Made by a program: the position numbers and the translations under genes
Assembly (NCBI GenBank): GCA_017514525.1
Contig: JAFWJY010000122.1
Location: 1 to 36,106, forward strand
DNA: 36,106 nt
Reading direction: 5' to 3'
From: Solobacterium sp.
GTDB taxonomy: Bacteria; Bacillota_I; Bacilli_A; Erysipelotrichales; Erysipelotrichaceae
Shown: positions 16,392 through 27,500 of the stretch, one piece after another
How positions within the stretch are numbered: position 1 is the first letter of the stretch
How the letters are laid out: the number at the start of each line of letters is the position of its first letter
The notes under the pieces: model-generated
Told to the model about the DNA's origin: nothing
Database searches by the model: none
Seen by the model: only the letters and a program-made list of their open reading frames with translations

Positions 16392-17048
16392 TTAATAGTT
16401 TTCTGCGTTTACTTCAAAGTAGGACTGTGGATGGTCGCATACCGGGCAGATATCCGGAGCCTTTGTGCCTACAACGATATGTCCGCAGTTTCTGCACTCC
16501 CAGACTTTTACTTCGCTCTTTGCGAATACTTCCTGCATCTCTACATTCTTCAGCAGTGCACGATAACGCTCTTCATGGTGCTTCTCGATTGCGCCGACTG
16601 CACGGAACTTCTTTGCGAGCTCCGGGAAGCCCTCTGCTTCAGCAGTCTTCGCAAACTCCTCGTACATATCAGTCCACTCATAGTTTTCACCATCCGCTGC
16701 AGCCGCAAGGTTGTCAGCTGTGGATCCGATTCCGTTGAGTTCCTTGAACCAGAGCTTTGCATGTTCTTTTTCATTGTCAGCGGTCTTCAGGAACAGTGCC
16801 GCAATCTGTTCAAAGCCTTCCTTTTTTGCCTTGGATGCGAAATACGTGTATTTGTTTCTTGCCTGGGATTCCCCCGCAAACGCAGCCTCAAGATTCTTTT
16901 CGGTCTGTGTTCCTGCGTACGGGTTTTTGCGCTCCGCTTTTACTTCTTCCAGCTTATCGCCAGTTGCCTTGCACAGCGGGCATACTGCGCTTTCAAGGCT
17001 TTCTGCTTCGAATACTTCTCCACAGACTTTACATTTGATTGTTGCCAT
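16392..17048 (-). CDS. rbr: Rubrerythrin with an extra N-terminal rubredoxin-like domain
   Basis: [18 protein letters not shown] and EKHH diiron ligands; C-terminal CRNC..CPVC and N-terminal CKVC..CPLC. Confidence 0.93.
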
Positions 17049-17080
17049 TTTTCTCCTCCTTCATAACAACGTTTCAGTGT

Positions 17081-17458
17081 TTACTTCTGATTGGTTTGTT
17101 TCCTGCATGCAGGACAGATGTATCGAATCTGCAGATCATAGGAGAGTATTGAATCCCTGATCTGCGACTGCAGCTGTTCCGTAAAGTCATCCAGAATGAT
17201 GTCGGTGAGATCACCGCACTTTGAGCAGACCAGATGATCATGGCGTGTTGCCCTGTCATACCGATCCGGATGGCCTTCTACGGTTACTTTCCGAATTTTA
17301 CCTTCCGCATGAAGATGATTGAGATTGTTGTAGATGGTTGCCAGTACAACACCCGGATACTGCTCCTTCATCCGCAGAAATATTTCTTCAGCCGTCAGAT
17401 GTTCATGTGATGTATTGATTAGTTCCAGTATCTCGTTTGCGTATCTCATGGTGGTCAC
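17081..17458 (-). CDS. Fur-family regulator, PerR-like
   Basis: HLTAEEIF, LATIYNNL, HDHLVCSKC and CPAC motifs; upstream of rbr behind a Per-type box. Start may be GTG 17458 or ATG 17449. Confidence 0.88.
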   Translation of the reverse strand: MTTMRYANEILELINTSHEHLTAEEIFLRMKEQYPGVVLATIYNNLNHLHAEGKIRKVTVEGHPDRYDRATRHDHLVCSKCGDLTDIILDDFTEQLQSQIRDSILSYDLQIRYICPACRKQTNQK

Positions 17459-17613: not shown

Positions 17614-17925
17614 TCAGTTATTACGGTAGTGATAGTAAAACATTTCCCGCGTTGTTGACTCTACTCCCTGCGAATAAATATGTCTCCATCCTTCATGCGG
17701 GAAGAGTACCTCATTCGCATAATTAATCGCACTTTGCGGACTGACTATCGCAAGTTCATTCATTTTCATTACCGCTTCCTGATATGTCACACCATTGATC
17801 GCATAGTTCTCCGGCATGGACCAGTCAGCCTGCGTAGTCTGTGGCCGCCGCGGTTTTCCTATTACTCCGCCGGAAATAAGATCCAGCTCATCATCACTGA
17901 TGATATTTTTCTTAGTATTTTCCAT
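17614..17925 (-). CDS. Small protein with double-glycine-type leader peptide
   Basis: MENTKKNIISDDELDLISGG leader; GGAGG SD; TATAAT at 17960-17955; own terminator. Confidence 0.75.
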   Translation of the reverse strand: MENTKKNIISDDELDLISGGVIGKPRRPQTTQADWSMPENYAINGVTYQEAVMKMNELAIVSPQSAINYANEVLFPHEGWRHIYSQGVESTTREMFYYHYRNN

Positions 17926-18055: not shown

Positions 18056-20434
18056 TTAAGCTTTTGTGTTGACGTAACGAATGATGTTGGATGCGTTGGC
18101 ATAGGTATGCGCATGTCCATGATTCAGCATAACTAGCGTCGGTGCCTGCATGATGCCATACTGCTTTACAAGATCCGCATGTTCTTCCGCATCAATGACC
18201 TGATACTGGAATCCGGTTCTGTTCAGCATGTTTTTTACCATGGAACAGTTCGGGCAGGTCTTTGTTGTAAAGAGCAGCGCCGTTGCGTTGGAATCATCTT
18301 CCGGCTCTGCAGCAATGACCGTCTCCGGTTCCTCAATCGGAGTGACTGCTGCTGCACGCGGGGAGGAATTCATAACCTTATAGGTATTGCGATCCTTGAA
18401 CTCCTGCGCCTTGCCGGCATTCCAGTTCTTGACCGGGCGATAGTAGCCGGTAATACGGGAGTATACTTCTGTCTCTGCACCGCACTTCGGACATTTCCAG
18501 ACTTCACCGGAAATATAACCGTCATTCTTACAGATGGAATAGGTCGGGCTCATGGTGTAATACGGCAGGCGGTAGTTCTCCGCAATCTTACGTACCAGTG
18601 TTGCCGCAGATCTCCAGTCGGACAGACGTTCACCCAGGAACGCATGGAATACAGTACCGGATGTATACAGTGTCTGCAGTTCATCCTGAATATCGAGAGC
18701 TGTGAAGATATCATCCGTGAAGCCGACCGGCAGGTGGCTCGAATTGGTGTAATACGGAGTGCCCTGCATGTTGGCGGTGATGATGTCCGGATAACGCTCG
18801 GTATCGTGTTTTGCCAGACGATAGCTTGTGCTTTCTGCAGGAGTCGCCTCAAGGTTGTACAGATCGCCATACAGCTCCTGATAATCGGAGAGACGGCTGC
18901 GCATATGATTCAGTACTTCCTTGGCAAATTCCTGCGCTTCCGGATGCGTGAGATCTTTTCTAAGCCATGCGGCATTGAGACCTGCTTCGTTCATACCGAC
19001 AAGACCAATTGTTGAGAAATGGTTATTGAAGGTTCCAAGGTAGCGCTTGGTATACGGATACAGACCCGAATCCAGCAGCTTGGTAATAACTTCACGCTTT
19101 ACCTTGAGGGAACGTGCGGATACATCCATGATGTGATCCAAGTTCGCATAGAACTCTTCCTTGGTCTTTGCCAGGTATGCAATACGCGGCAGATTGATTG
19201 TCACAACGCCGACAGAACCGGTGCTTTCGCCGCTTCCGAAGAAGCCGCCGCTCTTTTTGCGCAGCTCACGCAGATCAAGACGAAGTCTGCAGCACATGGA
19301 ACGAACATCGCTCGGTTCCATATCAGAGTTGACATAGTTGGAGAAATACGGAGTGCCATACTTCGCTGTCATCTCAAACAGCAGTTTGTTATTTTCCGTT
19401 TCGCTCCAGTCAAAATCACGGGTAATGGAATAGGTCGGAATCGGATACTGGAAGCCGCGGCCATTTGCGTCGCCTTCGATCATGGTCTCAATAAATGCTT
19501 TATTGATCATGTCCATTTCCGGCTTGCAGTCTTTGTATTTGAAATTCATTTCCTTGCCGCCGACAATTGCCGGAAGCTCCGCCAGATCATTCGGAACGGT
19601 CCAGTCCAGCGTGATGTTGGTAAACGGCGCCTGTGTTCCCCACCGGCTCGGTGTATTAACACCATAGATGAAGGACTGAATATCCTGCTTCACCTGTGAA
19701 TAGGACAGGTTGTCTGCTTTTACAAACGGCGCAAGGTATGTATCAAAGCTGGAGAACGCCTGGGCACCAGCCCACTCATTCTGCATGATGCCAAGGAAGT
19801 TGACCATCTGGTTGCACAAAGTGGACAGATGCTTTGCCGGCGCCGATGTGATCTTACCCGGAATACCGCCAAGGCCTTCCATGATCAGCTGCTTGAGGGA
19901 CCATCCTGCACAGTATCCTGTCAACATGGACAGATCATGAATATGGATATCCGCATTGCGGTGAAGGGCTGCGATTTCGTCATCGTAAACCTCGGACAGC
20001 CAGTAGTTTGCTGTAATCGCACCCGAGTTGGAAAGAATCAGACCGCCTACGGAATAGGTAACTGTCGAGTTTTCCTTTACGCGCCAGTCCAACGCCTTCA
20101 GATAACTGTCGACCAGTTTCTTATAGTCAAGCGTGGTAGCTGTAATGTTACGAACATTCTCGCGCTGTTTACGATACAGAATATAGGCTTTTGCGACATC
20201 CGCATAACCAGCATTGGACAGGACTTTTTCAACACTGACCTGAACTTCTTCAACCCCGATCAGATCATCTTTGATTTTCGGTTCGAAATCACTGGTAACC
20301 TGCAGTGCGATCATATCCAGAATGCTGTCGGCATACTGTCTGCCGCACGCATCAAATGCTTTGCGGATTGCTTCACTGATCTTCTTTACATCAAACTCTG
20401 ATACTTTACCGTCTCTTTTAACTACCCTGAACAT
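18056..20434 (-). CDS. nrdD: Anaerobic class III ribonucleoside-triphosphate reductase with N-terminal ATP-cone and C-terminal glutaredoxin-like domain
   Basis: VVKRDG ATP-cone, HIHD, TGYC, SMCCRL, ATPAES and glycyl-radical RITGYY; C-terminal TKTCPNC...IMQAPTL. Confidence 0.96.
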   Translation of the reverse strand: MFRVVKRDGKVSEFDVKKISEAIRKAFDACGRQYADSILDMIALQVTSDFEPKIKDDLIGVEEVQVSVEKVLSNAGYADVAKAYILYRKQRENVRNITATTLDYKKLVDSYLKALDWRVKENSTVTYSVGGLILSNSGAITANYWLSEVYDDEIAALHRNADIHIHDLSMLTGYCAGWSLKQLIMEGLGGIPGKITSAPAKHLSTLCNQMVNFLGIMQNEWAGAQAFSSFDTYLAPFVKADNLSYSQVKQDIQSFIYGVNTPSRWGTQAPFTNITLDWTVPNDLAELPAIVGGKEMNFKYKDCKPEMDMINKAFIETMIEGDANGRGFQYPIPTYSITRDFDWSETENNKLLFEMTAKYGTPYFSNYVNSDMEPSDVRSMCCRLRLDLRELRKKSGGFFGSGESTGSVGVVTINLPRIAYLAKTKEEFYANLDHIMDVSARSLKVKREVITKLLDSGLYPYTKRYLGTFNNHFSTIGLVGMNEAGLNAAWLRKDLTHPEAQEFAKEVLNHMRSRLSDYQELYGDLYNLEATPAESTSYRLAKHDTERYPDIITANMQGTPYYTNSSHLPVGFTDDIFTALDIQDELQTLYTSGTVFHAFLGERLSDWRSAATLVRKIAENYRLPYYTMSPTYSICKNDGYISGEVWKCPKCGAETEVYSRITGYYRPVKNWNAGKAQEFKDRNTYKVMNSSPRAAAVTPIEEPETVIAAEPEDDSNATALLFTTKTCPNCSMVKNMLNRTGFQYQVIDAEEHADLVKQYGIMQAPTLVMLNHGHAHTYANASNIIRYVNTKA

Positions 20435-20438
20435 TTTT

Positions 20439-21584
20439 TCACCCTTCCTTCACTCCCCGCAGTTCAACGGTCGGAACATATTCCGATGCCGCTTCACGAA
20501 GTTCTTCCATTTCATCCTTTGTATAAGCGCTCCAGCCTGGCGCAATTACATTTCCGCTGTCTGTATACTGCTGCAGATAATAATGACTGGTTCCGCGAAT
20601 CCACCTGGCGATTTCAACGATATCGTCCTTGGTGTGGAGTTCCCGGACCACAGTTGTGCGGAATTCATGCTCGATATCGCTGGTCATCAGGAACTTGACA
20701 GACTCCTGTATTCGTTCCATTCGGAATACATCCTGATTCAGACCAACTGTATCCGCATACTTCTCCGGTGTGTTTTTGATATCCATTGCCACATAATCCA
20801 CCATTCCGGTCGAACAGATTTCTTCCAGCCGGTCTGGAAAGTAACCGTTCGTATCCAGTTTGACCAGATACCCAATCTTTTTGATCGCGGCAATGAAGCT
20901 CTGCAGATCATCCTGCATCAGCGGTTCCCCTCCCGTGATGCAGACGCCATCGAGAATCTTTTTTCGTTTCTCGAGATAGGCCAGCACATCATCCGGATCC
21001 AGGAATTCATACCGGTCCGGAACGAAGACAAGATCGCGGTTATGACAATACGGGCATTTGAAGTTGCAGCCGCCGGTAAATATGGTTGCGGCAACTTTGC
21101 CCGGATAATCCAGCATCGTCATCTTCTGAAGCCCGCCGATCTTGATTCCGGAGAATAGAGGTTCCGGATTCAGATACATACGAGAGTTGGTCGTGACACG
21201 ATCCAACAGGGTTTCAAACCGGTCAAAATCCGTATCCATTGCCAGTTTCAGACGACATTCATTACGCAGTTCATACAGCTCATTCATGATCTTCGCAGCA
21301 CGTTCTGTGGTATATAACCGTTTTACCCGGCGGTCATTTTCATCGGTGCGTGCCTGCACATAATCCTGTTCAATCAGTTTCTGAACACTCTTGGTTGTGG
21401 TTCCCTTATCGACTTCACCGATACGGGAAACCTCATTCATTGTGATGCCTTCCTGCTCGTTAATTAAAAAAAGGAAAATCAACTGTCCGCTTCCGATATC
21501 ATATTTCGCCATTGTCTTATCGAAATACTTCTGAATATTCCGATACAATGCTGAAATATCAATCAGAAAGCTGCTCTCAGCCAT
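20439..21584 (-). CDS. nrdG: MarR-domain / anaerobic RNR activating enzyme fusion
   Basis: N-terminal ~140 aa with DKGTTTKSVQKL and DENDRR; C-terminal GGLQK.T.LDYPG, CNFKCPYC, TGGEP, KLDTNG and EFRTT. ATG 21584 has an AAAGGGG SD (381 aa). Confidence 0.9.
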   Translation of the reverse strand: MAESSFLIDISALYRNIQKYFDKTMAKYDIGSGQLIFLFLINEQEGITMNEVSRIGEVDKGTTTKSVQKLIEQDYVQARTDENDRRVKRLYTTERAAKIMNELYELRNECRLKLAMDTDFDRFETLLDRVTTNSRMYLNPEPLFSGIKIGGLQKMTMLDYPGKVAATIFTGGCNFKCPYCHNRDLVFVPDRYEFLDPDDVLAYLEKRKKILDGVCITGGEPLMQDDLQSFIAAIKKIGYLVKLDTNGYFPDRLEEICSTGMVDYVAMDIKNTPEKYADTVGLNQDVFRMERIQESVKFLMTSDIEHEFRTTVVRELHTKDDIVEIARWIRGTSHYYLQQYTDSGNVIAPGWSAYTKDEMEELREAASEYVPTVELRGVKEG

Positions 21585-21616
21585 AGGTTTCCCCTTTCTC
21601 AACACATGGAACATGC

Positions 21617-21692
21617 TTGGTAACCCAACATAGTTGGATATCCAATTTTTACTTCCATTTATAGATTCTACCAGTGTTTTTTTGCAGGTCAA
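21617..21692 (-). promoter_or_regulatory. nrdG-nrdD promoter with tandem palindromic operator
   Basis: TTGACC (21692-21687), 16 bp, TGG-TAGAAT (-10 at 21670-21665); TTGG-N4-CCAA at 21617-21628 and 21634-21645. Confidence 0.7.
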
Positions 21693-24944: not shown

Positions 24945-27500
24945 TTACTTGTTGTCAGCAGTCACCGCTTTGGCAGCAGTACGACCGGAAACGAAGATTT
25001 CAACAATTGCGTTTCCACCGAGACGGTTACCGCCGTGGATGCCGCCGGTCACTTCACCTGCCGCATAGAGACCTGGGATCGCGTTGCCGTCTGTATCCAG
25101 TACATGACGGTCAACATCAACCTTCAGACCACCCATGGTATGGTGTGTAGACGGAGCCATCAGTCGAACAGTGAGCTCAGCGCCATCGAGATCATAAGTA
25201 TCTGCGATATACTTGCCGGTCTCGTCCTTTTCGCAGTTGCCGATTGTACGGTTTGCGTTTGTCTTCTTGACGTCCGGATACTCCTCAGTCGCAGCGCCTG
25301 CGATTACAGCAGCGTCATAGTCTTCAATTGTCTTGCGTACAACAGCAGGATCCGCTTCGACACCGATCTTCTTGAACAGATCTGCGAGTCCGGCGATGTT
25401 TGTGCGATAGTAGCGGCCTTCATAGTCGCCTTCTGCCAGCTGCATCGGAGCCGGAAGTGCCTGTTCCTTATTGTAGATTTCAACGAATACGCCCTTTGTG
25501 CCATTGACTTCCATACCGTTGCGGAACTCAGCCAGAGACAGTACATCACGTTCAGAAGTTTCATCAACGAAACGCTTCCCGGTTGTCGGGTTGATCCATA
25601 CGGCATAGTTGCCTGCACCGAACGCGAGGTTGCCGTTATCAACCCAGGAAATCGGCATCAGCTGTGTGAAATTCATACCGGTGACGGCAGCGCCTGCTGC
25701 TTCACCCATTGTGATGCCATCGCCCTGCAGAGAAGAACGGTTCGTTGTCTTGGTATTGGTTGTGAGATATTCGCTGTCCCAGTACTGGTTGTACTCGAGA
25801 ACTTTATCAATGTTAGCTGCGAAACCGCCAGTTGTAAGGATAACGCCCTTATTGGCATGAATCGTAACCGGAGTGCCATTGAACTGTGTACCAGTTACAC
25901 CGGTAACACGGCCATCTTCAACGATCAGATTTTCTGCGTCAGTACGAAGCAGCACCTGATTGTCTTTTGCGGTAGGGCTTGTCTTTGTGAGTGTGTTGAG
26001 CGGAGCCATGAAGTAGGTGCCCCAGCGGCCCGGATATTCAACGCCATCAATTTCAGCGCCTGCGAATTCATTTTCACGATACCAGAGTGCGCCAATCAGT
26101 GTCGGCTGTGTATCTTCAACAAACTTCGCACCCTGTTCTTCCAGCCATGGCTTGAGATCCTGACCATCCTTGATGAACTGGCTGACAAGATCATAATCAC
26201 CATACATCCACTCGGACATATCAGCTGTCGGACGAAGTCCGCCATAGTATGTCTGGAAGATGTGCAGGTTGACGGTGGAGAACAATGTCACTTCGTTCGC
26301 ACCGGCAGCGATCTTCTTGTCTGCCCATGCAAGATACTCTTTGATTTCCTTCTTGAGATCCTTGAGTGTCTGCAGGTATTCCTGATGTACACCATGCTTG
26401 GAGAGCTCAGCTGTATCGCCTGCGACAAATTCATGATCCTTGTAATAAGCTTCATCAAACGGTTCTTCGGACCAGTTTTCAATCAGACGGAGCTCATCCA
26501 GTGTATTGATGTTTTCAACTACCTTGTTATAAGTATTGCCATCAAAACCAACACCCGTAGTCGCATCCGGATCGTTCGGATCCCATACCAGATACGGCAT
26601 TACCGACTGATACTGACCGCCGGAGACAAGTGTATTTCCGCCGATTTCAGCGTTCTTTTCAATGACACATACGGTGTTGCCGTCCTGTGCAGCCTGTGCT
26701 GCTGCAGCCATGCCGGCTCCACCTGCACCAACGACGACTACGTCAAAGGTCTGATCGATCGGATCACCAGCTTCAATCTTGACCGTATTTTTCTTGAAAC
26801 CATCCAGATCGGAAGCCCCTGCCTTTTCAGCCGCATCCGCAACTGCGTTCTTAAGTGCGAGAGAGGTGAATGTAGCGCCAGAGACAATGTCTACGCCGCT
26901 TCCGTTCGCTTCAATCATCTCATCAATCAGAATGTCATATGCGACTGTTCCGACATGTTCGGTTTCAACCGACTCTGCAACTTCAATGGACTCAATGCCA
27001 TCTTCCTTAAATGTAACATCTACTTTAACCGGGCCATTGTATCCGGTGCTTTCACCGGTATACTTGCCTGCGGTATAAGTGACCGGCACATTCTCGCCTG
27101 TGGAAGCTGCGCCTTCTCCCAGAGATTCCGGATCAACCCCTGCAGACTCCAAGGCCGCCTTGGCCGCATCAATAATTGCCTGCGATGTAATTGTCGCGCC
27201 ACTTACGGTATCAACTTTCAAAGACTGCGCGTCAACGATTTCACCCGGTACTGTCTCAATTGCCGGATCAGAAATACCTGCAGTTTCCTGATGGTCGGTA
27301 ACCTTGACTTCCTTGATTGCGTCAGAAGTCAGTGTCACTTCAACAGTGACATCTCCGTTTTTACCCGGAGCTTTGCCTGTGTAGGTTCCAGCAGGAAATC
27401 TGCCTTCACCGCCTGTGTTCTGAGCCGGAGAACAATTCGCAAGTCCCAGCATAGCAGAAACACAGAACAGGCCAACAATGCCTAATCTATTTGTTTTCAT
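24945..27500 (-). CDS. Exported FAD-dependent reductase (fumarate/urocanate reductase family) with two FMN-binding domains
   Basis: Signal peptide with Cys23; two SGAT flavinylation motifs (VDTVSGATITS, VDIVSGATFTS); GAGGAG, HHTMGG, AAGE and GIHGGNRLGGNA. Confidence 0.9.
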   Translation of the reverse strand: MKTNRLGIVGLFCVSAMLGLANCSPAQNTGGEGRFPAGTYTGKAPGKNGDVTVEVTLTSDAIKEVKVTDHQETAGISDPAIETVPGEIVDAQSLKVDTVSGATITSQAIIDAAKAALESAGVDPESLGEGAASTGENVPVTYTAGKYTGESTGYNGPVKVDVTFKEDGIESIEVAESVETEHVGTVAYDILIDEMIEANGSGVDIVSGATFTSLALKNAVADAAEKAGASDLDGFKKNTVKIEAGDPIDQTFDVVVVGAGGAGMAAAAQAAQDGNTVCVIEKNAEIGGNTLVSGGQYQSVMPYLVWDPNDPDATTGVGFDGNTYNKVVENINTLDELRLIENWSEEPFDEAYYKDHEFVAGDTAELSKHGVHQEYLQTLKDLKKEIKEYLAWADKKIAAGANEVTLFSTVNLHIFQTYYGGLRPTADMSEWMYGDYDLVSQFIKDGQDLKPWLEEQGAKFVEDTQPTLIGALWYRENEFAGAEIDGVEYPGRWGTYFMAPLNTLTKTSPTAKDNQVLLRTDAENLIVEDGRVTGVTGTQFNGTPVTIHANKGVILTTGGFAANIDKVLEYNQYWDSEYLTTNTKTTNRSSLQGDGITMGEAAGAAVTGMNFTQLMPISWVDNGNLAFGAGNYAVWINPTTGKRFVDETSERDVLSLAEFRNGMEVNGTKGVFVEIYNKEQALPAPMQLAEGDYEGRYYRTNIAGLADLFKKIGVEADPAVVRKTIEDYDAAVIAGAATEEYPDVKKTNANRTIGNCEKDETGKYIADTYDLDGAELTVRLMAPSTHHTMGGLKVDVDRHVLDTDGNAIPGLYAAGEVTGGIHGGNRLGGNAIVEIFVSGRTAAKAVTADNK

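Follow-up and report, generated by a model that had tools for sequence, protein, structure and literature searches.

Introduction

Bifunctional enzyme–repressors are an established kind of regulator. In BirA, NadR, and PutA, one chain combines a DNA-binding domain with an enzyme of the regulated pathway. Within the MarR family, the members that sense thiol oxidation (the OhrR type) carry a conserved sensor cysteine. The regulator described for RNR genes is NrdR, which is presented in two papers as the RNR repressor of most bacteria and as binding DNA when loaded with dATP and ATP (PMC9110341, PMC12051234). Two further papers indicate that the cones of NrdD are repositioned by ATP versus dATP (PMC12662201) and that activated NrdD turns over without NrdG (PMC11226230). 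In the literature searched, no paper was found on the control of RNR genes in lineages without NrdR.

Here we describe a gene that joins a MarR domain to an NrdG2-type activase, found in a 36,106-nucleotide stretch of DNA from a Solobacterium sp. (contig JAFWJY010000122.1), called the window below. Enzyme–repressor fusions and RNR repressors are both known kinds, and the MarR–NrdG2 combination is undescribed in the literature searched. That search was made by title and start of abstract, with subscription papers, supplements, and regulon databases outside it, and a text search for MarR found nothing in 10.1101/2025.03.28.645925, PMC12051234, or PMC2795772. From its sequence context, the fusion is very probably an RNR repressor that stands in for NrdR, with MarR halves that would bind a palindrome and block transcription. 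For an order whose sampled genomes yielded no nrdR, this offers a proposed regulator, a candidate operator, and a set of targets in about 40% of those genomes, some of which belong to cultured gut commensals.

The MarR–NrdG2 Fusion Gene

The fusion is a 381-aa open reading frame on the minus strand (20439–21584) that translates without an internal stop. Its MarR domain (aa 1–138; 21171–21584, minus strand) is assigned by Pfam, a structural model, fold matches, and conservation; it has the dimer helices, a DRR wing, and a recognition helix, DKGTTTKS, at 21387–21410 on the same strand. An 8-aa linker without an internal start follows (aa 139–146; 21147–21170, minus strand), and the remainder (aa 147–381 plus the stop; 20439–21146, minus strand) is an NrdG2-type radical-SAM activase domain whose CxxxCxxC cluster motif lies at 21045–21068 on the minus strand. 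Both domains score over their family cut-offs: 30.5 bits (cut-off 24.6) for Pfam MarR, 40.8 bits (cut-off 27) for MarR_2 at aa 32–86, and 224.6 bits (cut-off 131.15) for the NCBIfam NrdG2 model TIGR02495 at aa 149–340, with Radical_SAM matched at 77 bits over aa 168–329. The cut-off of a further model, BilQ NF045593, was missed (60.7 versus 125 bits). The frame contains DKGTTTKSVQKL, DENDRR, NPEPLFSG, and C173-x3-C177-x2-C180, and these three cysteines are invariant, as is G218-G219-E220 of GGEP. The reading of a complete MarR domain and a full NrdG in one frame, made in the initial annotation from the letters of the sequence, is thus confirmed.

An AlphaFold2 model built from a 39-row alignment (mean pLDDT 91.6, pTM 0.66) has a complete MarR fold up to aa 138, with dimer helices from 6–28 to 120–138, and the activase after it. 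The MarR part fits 3bpx with an rmsd of 1.6 Å, and the top fold match is the PFL activating enzyme 3cb8 (E 2.8e-13). Matches to solved structures, i.e., the PFL activating enzyme and MarR proteins, each cover one part of the model only. By the features tested, the protein is a member of both NrdG2 and MarR, and it is predicted to install a glycyl radical and to bind DNA.

The junction was examined across relatives by pooling 87 fusion loci, of which the 68 below 97% identity were kept. Residue 147 is encoded by ATC (Ile) in the window, and across the de-duplicated set this column holds L in 32, I in 23, V in 7, F and M in 2 each, and T and P in 1 each. Only one fusion has an SD-like word and a start codon close to the junction, and none of the 68 has a split MarR plus nrdG form. 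The earlier argument that the Ile and the missing internal SD point to a real fusion is borne out, although the start it gave for stand-alone homologs, MKIGGLQK, was not seen; those read begin MK(I/L)(H/Y)GLQKM. Both the MarR and the Radical_SAM Pfam marks are found in 119 of the 120 best protein matches (59–100% identity). With a query spanning MarR and the junction, all but 4 of 124 matches lie in open frames of at least 354 aa. In other sequencing runs, four contigs cross the junction in frame without a gap, two from DNA (run X4, record 30; run X10, record 8) and two from RNA libraries (run X15, record 16; run X17, record 22); such contigs document presence, not expression. An assembly artifact or a read-through of two genes is rejected by these contigs, the shared architecture, and the near absence of internal starts with an SD-like word (1 of 68). 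The MarR–NrdG2 fusion is genuine.

The partner nrdD (18056–20434, minus strand) starts 4 nt behind the fusion and encodes a 792-aa protein of the PRK08270 type with its GYCAG, SMCCR, and RITGY motifs all intact. Its ATP-cone (aa 3–92; 20159–20428, minus strand), identified by Pfam, profile scans, and conservation, is the proposed nucleotide sensor. The C-terminal tail carries a glutaredoxin-like CPNC domain by Pfam (18134–18277, minus strand).

Behind nrdD on the same strand lie a 103-aa open reading frame without a Pfam match, a Fur/PerR-like gene, and rubrerythrin (16392–17458 and 17614–17925), the last two forming an oxidative-stress pair that adjoins an oxygen-sensitive enzyme. Several relatives have a thioredoxin-reductase-like gene 3' of nrdD that is not in the window. 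Farther away, 24945–27500 encodes a predicted lipoprotein of 851 aa that combines two FMN-binding domains with a FAD-binding reductase domain, which we take to be a flavinylated extracellular reductase. Two loci elsewhere are rearranged. At L133:3791-5107 (genome G034), a 438-aa open reading frame, presumably of the IscB/RRXRR insertion-element type given what its start resembles, is inserted between the fusion and nrdD; at L097:1061-3010 (G013:C301), a 649-aa open reading frame joins an ATP-cone and ~220 NrdD-like residues to unrelated sequence.

Distribution of the Fusion and the Search for nrdR

Named best protein matches to the fusion come from Solobacterium, Bulleidia, and Erysipelotrichaceae. 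The fusion is found in 27 of 41 related genomes, in one of them cut by a contig end. A query covering the MarR domain and the junction (aa 1–165, E up to 1e-20) has matches in 122 of the order's 301 genomes. By group, these are 38 of 39 genomes of the genus, 105 of 230 of the family, and 16 of 69 of a second family. G213, counted among the 122, turned out on inspection to hold a stand-alone MarR and not a fusion. A class-wide draw gave matches in 19 of 399 scored genomes, and a single one (G570:C21:6404-6883) lies outside the order, among ~350 other genomes of the class that were scored. Among the matches listed (80 of 589) are Stecheria intestinalis, Kandleria vitulina, Catenibacterium mitsuokai, Sharpea porci, Galactobacillus, Lactimicrobium, and uncultured Acholeplasmatales. 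The Acholeplasmatales record (L192) has the fusion with a box of the kind described below and an intact nrdD. Transfer is a possible explanation for the occurrences outside the order, i.e., G570 and L192.

No nrdR (TIGR00244) was found in the window's own genome, an assembly that is 80.7% complete with 4.3% contamination. The same holds for all 41 relatives at the model cut-off and for all 301 genomes of the order at E 1e-10, a search that was positive in 9 of 14 control genomes. Eleven weak TIGR00244 matches among the relatives were set aside, as they are confined to the ATP-cone part and fall in long open frames that coincide with RNR genes or lie close to them. The check for nrdR in fusion carriers that the initial annotation proposed thus found none, and this is true of the whole order. 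Because nrdR is missing from carriers and non-carriers alike, the fusion did not cause its loss, and that explanation was rejected.

The Candidate Operator

A palindromic motif search in the 120 nt upstream of 27 fusions returned TAGTTGGAwwTCCAACTA, an 18-bp palindrome of 16.2 bits, compared with 7.2–7.7 bits in eight shuffles. Sites score at least 14 in 21 of these 27 upstream regions. In the window, the putative operator at 21631–21648 reads AAATTGGATATCCAACTA on the minus strand and scores 24.4 bits with a matrix built without its own site. It sits 46 nt before the ATG and 16 nt behind the –10 of a predicted sigma-70-like promoter, TTGACC-16-TAGAAT with a TG before the –10 (21665–21692, minus strand), which is a consensus match at 10 of 12 positions. 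The apparent ribosome-binding site AAAGGGGA (21590–21597, minus strand) precedes the ATG at 21584. Where a boxed fusion also has a –10-like hexamer (53 cases), the distance from the –10 to the box is –1 to 18 nt, which would be the position of a repressor. A second inverted repeat at 21614–21631 reaches just 2.5 bits and was not counted. Paired 16-bp NrdR boxes, sought with up to three mismatches to a consensus, were not present before the three RNR starts.

The box tracks the fused form of the gene. It is present in 28 of 28 fusions with active partners that lie outside the discovery set and have at least 100 nt upstream. Among 45 fusions with intact partners, 43 are boxed, one is unboxed, and the upstream DNA of one is too short; boxes also precede three more fusions whose partner is intact. 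Before stand-alone nrdG, mostly from Lachnospiraceae, no box was found at 16 loci.

Boxes Before Unlinked RNR Genes

The own genome was scanned with a matrix of 20 fusion-upstream sites that left out its own. The top three matches precede nrdD on contig C253, nrdD on contig C244, and the fusion (28.0, 25.7, and 24.4 bits); the fourth, at 19.6 bits, is inside an unrelated gene, and three shuffled genomes gave 1, 0, and 0 matches of at least 20 bits. The best of these contigs, C253, matches locus L241 of another genome (G263:C13) at 99.9% identity over 3018 nt and the own nrdD on C244 at 84%. C253 may be mis-binned, and because it may be foreign to the organism, C244 alone is counted as a safe target.

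The comparison among relatives used 54 of 81 listed ATP-cone genes; the others were left out because they belong to the own genome (3), lie behind a fusion (22), or have less than 100 nt upstream (2). With a score of at least 14, a box precedes 24 of 35 unlinked ATP-cone RNR genes in carriers (21 of 25 genomes) versus 2 of 19 in non-carriers (0 of 17 outside the genus), counts that come from related and non-independent genomes. One of the 35 carrier genes (in G010) probably sits behind a fusion across a contig break. By type, carriers have boxes before 19 of 20 nrdD genes of a second type, 3 of 6 unlinked nrdD genes of the PRK08270 type, and 2 of 8 nrdA genes. The one unboxed second-type nrdD is downstream of a boxed fusion operon. 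For nrdA, the overall figure in carriers is 2 of 13, with boxed nrdAB in G003 and G019.

A strict form of the pattern occurs in 78 of 122 carriers versus 13 of 179 other genomes of the order (77 of 121 versus 14 of 180 after G213 is moved). A loose form was dropped in favor of the strict one, as it has many matches in every genome that are probably mostly due to chance or codon bias. The genes beside 59 strict sites were read, with 62 matches lying outside this set and most sites beside known fusions left out. Of the 45 sites in carriers, 39 precede nrdD or nrdA, and the rest lie before a fusion (2), a stand-alone MarR (1), or something else (3); 1 of the 14 in non-carriers precedes an RNR gene.

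Some loci show the box in other settings. Three genomes that are 92–97% complete (G005, G023, and G263) have a boxed nrdD with no fusion found. In G018, G024, G023, and G007 (loci L031, L032, L033, and L034, respectively), stand-alone PRK08270-type nrdG–nrdD operons have the box between nrdG and nrdD. These boxes look like ones gained on entering the regulon, since comparable Lachnospiraceae loci are unboxed before nrdG. A related but distinct palindrome, TGTTGCAA..GCAACA, lies 52–58 nt before nrdD in three non-carriers (L110, G030:C171; L090, G035:C68; L107, G039:C49). A different regulator of RNR genes may use it in those members of the order that have neither nrdR nor the fusion.

The source of the box is suggested by stand-alone MarR genes before MATE transporters (L269, L275, and L276), which have TAGTTG-N6-CAACTA boxes and encode proteins 33–35% identical to the fused domain. 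Because these genes carry the same box type, the recognition helix and the operator were probably inherited. A likely history is that a MarR–MATE-type gene was captured with its operator before nrdG–nrdD, after which the box would have spread to other RNR promoters. As the stand-alone units use the same kind of box, another MarR could also bind it in some genomes.

Decay of the Partner NrdD

Among the 68 fusions, 11 are followed by an nrdD that is still an open frame of 568–784 aa and lacks the SMCCR loop; GYCAG is missing from most of these as well, and the entire glycyl-radical domain from several. The SMCCR cysteines are presumably catalytic, going by PMC11226230 and an inexact alignment to P. 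copri NrdD in which C175 aligns with Cys171 and the MCCR stretch falls near, not on, the MGCR stretch. In quick trees, the fusions with decayed partners fall into six groups. A single origin of the decayed NrdD is rejected (p-AU 3.6e-42), and at least four changes are required.

The decayed genes remain under selection. In seven close pairs from four groups, dN/dS is 0–0.066 for the ATP-cone, 0.03–0.18 for the rest of NrdD, 0–0.15 for MarR, and 0.02–0.15 for the activase, and seven active pairs are similar. The ATP-cone scores 66–79 bits in the four decayed copies scanned. Conservation of the winged helix is 0.78 in decayed lineages versus 0.74 in active ones, and for the activase it is 0.58 versus 0.67. 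CxxxCxxC is retained in all full-length fusions read, including those whose partners lack the catalytic motifs or the glycyl-radical domain, and residues on the SAM side drift in decayed lineages (CHN, FRTT), with an aromatic residue gone in L277–L279. Six of the 68 fusions have no nrdD behind them, and the three checked (G004, G018, and G024) have an active nrdD of the same type elsewhere.

The box before the fusion operon itself is lost in 9 of 11 fusions with decayed partners versus 1 of 44 with active partners, a link that comes down to three independent pairs (sign test p 0.25). In ten extra genomes chosen for weak-scoring fusions, the partner lacks the motifs in all ten and the fusion operon is unboxed in all ten. 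The second nrdD of these genomes has a perfect TRGTTG-N6-CAACYA palindrome 16–41 nt upstream in 9 of 9 cases, seven scoring at least 14 and two at 13.8 and 12.1, and their nrdA is boxed in 0 of 5. In G102, which has a decayed pair, the sole other RNR found is an unboxed nrdA.

Proposed Mechanism and Alternatives

The repressor reading is favored because the winged helix is conserved despite decay, the palindrome is at the position of a repressor, and the box before unlinked nrdD is found nearly only in carriers. The MarR halves would dimerize and bind the 18-bp palindrome, and the bound site, at about +10 to +27, would block transcription. The two activase domains of the dimer would dock on an NrdD dimer, and nucleotide-driven repositioning of the NrdD cones would shift the affinity of the MarR dimer for DNA, with repression most likely at high dATP, as with NrdR. 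The signal would thus pass from the nucleotide state of the NrdD cone through the NrdG–NrdD contact to MarR binding. We hold the chain as a whole, from the partner's cone to RNR repression, with moderate confidence.

The fusion likely activates the NrdD encoded behind it. Since the partner NrdD is intact in the window, the fusion there would be both an activase and a repressor. The pair of some lineages would no longer be catalytic and would serve solely as a two-protein sensor–repressor of the other nrdD. We tentatively suggest that, on at least four independent occasions, a two-protein transcription factor that senses nucleotides arose from an RNR and its activase, with non-catalytic NrdD as the ATP/dATP receptor and the MarR–NrdG dimer as the DNA-binding output. 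If this is true, NrdR has been replaced convergently by a regulator made from the very enzyme under control, and the intact operon of the window represents the bifunctional starting state. The decayed NrdDs would be natural RNR pseudo-enzymes under selection. Together the lineages would form a short series that runs from a functional enzyme pair to what is likely a pure sensor, in which the emergence of a regulator from an enzyme could be tested with purified proteins.

Binding of NrdD is the best-supported option for the signal, because NrdD copies without catalytic motifs are kept under selection. These non-catalytic copies are the best clue, as they are not kept for catalysis, their ATP-cone is the best-kept part, and they are translationally coupled to the fusion. 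A lasting complex of fusion and NrdD is not the default expectation, given that, according to PMC11226230, activated NrdD turns over without NrdG. The initial annotation had proposed that the activase may regulate its own operon. The conserved operator before the fusion operon and the same box before other RNR operons speak for that part. Thiol oxidation of the MarR part as the signal is not supported: across aa 1–145 of the 68 fusions, no cysteine column exceeds 41%.

Sensing of Fe–S status, O2, or SAM by the fusion, as the initial annotation proposed, is possible. The same RNR regulon could be repressed with the fusion's own [4Fe-4S]/SAM domain as the source of the signal (oxygen, iron, or SAM); the apo or oxidized protein would then repress the oxygen-sensitive class III operons. 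The retention of CxxxCxxC in all full-length fusions read, even beside decayed partners, fits this, as does a regulon that is mostly class III, with the second-type nrdD boxed in 19 of 20 and 9 of 9 cases versus 2 of 13 for nrdA. That class I nrdA is mostly unboxed is easier to reconcile with an oxygen-linked switch than with general dNTP feedback. The selective constraint on NrdD copies of 500–780 aa that have lost their catalytic motifs, strictest in the ATP-cone, is left unexplained, however, and neither the boxed nrdAB of two genomes nor the drift of SAM-side residues in decayed lineages is expected. We consider this main rival, an Fe–S or SAM signal, unlikely, and it could coexist with sensing through the NrdD cone.

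It is less likely still that the MarR domain represses the regulon in response to a small-molecule ligand of its own, with two independent domains whose fusion merely ties expression to the operon. The stand-alone MarR genes before MATE transporters have the same box type, and six fusions persist without a linked nrdD, as would be expected of independent domains. Such domains would not need a decayed activase and a decayed NrdD to stay under purifying selection, though, and the absence of a split form among the 68, with nearly all matches in full-length frames, also argues against their independence. That the fusion is an assembly artifact or a passenger without a role in RNR transcription is hardly credible and already largely refuted. 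The completeness and contamination of its own assembly and the three genomes with a boxed nrdD and no fusion found could be cited for it, but independent contigs cross the junction, nearly all homologs share the architecture, the recognition helix and wing are conserved, and the box tracks the fusion across genera. Repression by the fusion with NrdD as the source of the signal remains the preferred reading.

Comparison with Known Systems

The fusion is not a member of NrdR and likely works like it. As described for NrdR in PMC9110341 and 10.1101/2025.03.28.645925, a dedicated box marks several unlinked RNR operons close to their transcription start, and often the regulator's own gene as well, and in both systems an ATP-cone is the proposed sensor. 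There is no relation in sequence or fold. The fusion uses a winged helix, whereas NrdR combines a Zn ribbon and an ATP-cone in one chain, and neither of these domains is in the fusion. The box of the fusion is a single 18-bp palindrome in place of paired 16-bp boxes, its ATP-cone would come in trans from NrdD, and class I operons are mostly unboxed.

The two halves also compare well with their own families. Like NrdG2 proteins (TIGR02495; structural proxy, the PFL activating enzyme 3cb8 and 3c8f), the activase half is over the cut-off, has CxxxCxxC and GGEP, and adjoins a PRK08270-type nrdD; it differs in having a whole N-terminal MarR domain, and 16 stand-alone loci have neither that domain nor the box. 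The nearest solved MarR proteins are from Methanosarcina mazei (3s2w) and C. difficile (5eri). The fusion shares with them the full MarR fold (TM 0.81–0.89 on the target), the DxR wing, and a palindromic operator near its own promoter, and the MarR–MATE genes, which are the nearest unsolved relatives, have the same TAGTTG-N6-CAACTA box type. Unlike these proteins, it is fused to an enzyme, its boxes precede RNR operons and not efflux genes, and it has no conserved sensor cysteine.

The bifunctional enzyme–repressors BirA, NadR, and PutA offer the broader parallel. Control of DNA binding by the state of the enzyme part, a feature of this kind, is suggested here indirectly, by the selection on the decayed activase and its partner. 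In the fusion, the enzyme is a radical-SAM activase with a protein as its substrate, and the signal likely arrives via that partner. A further difference from these systems is that the fusion–NrdD pair repeatedly decays to a non-catalytic form.
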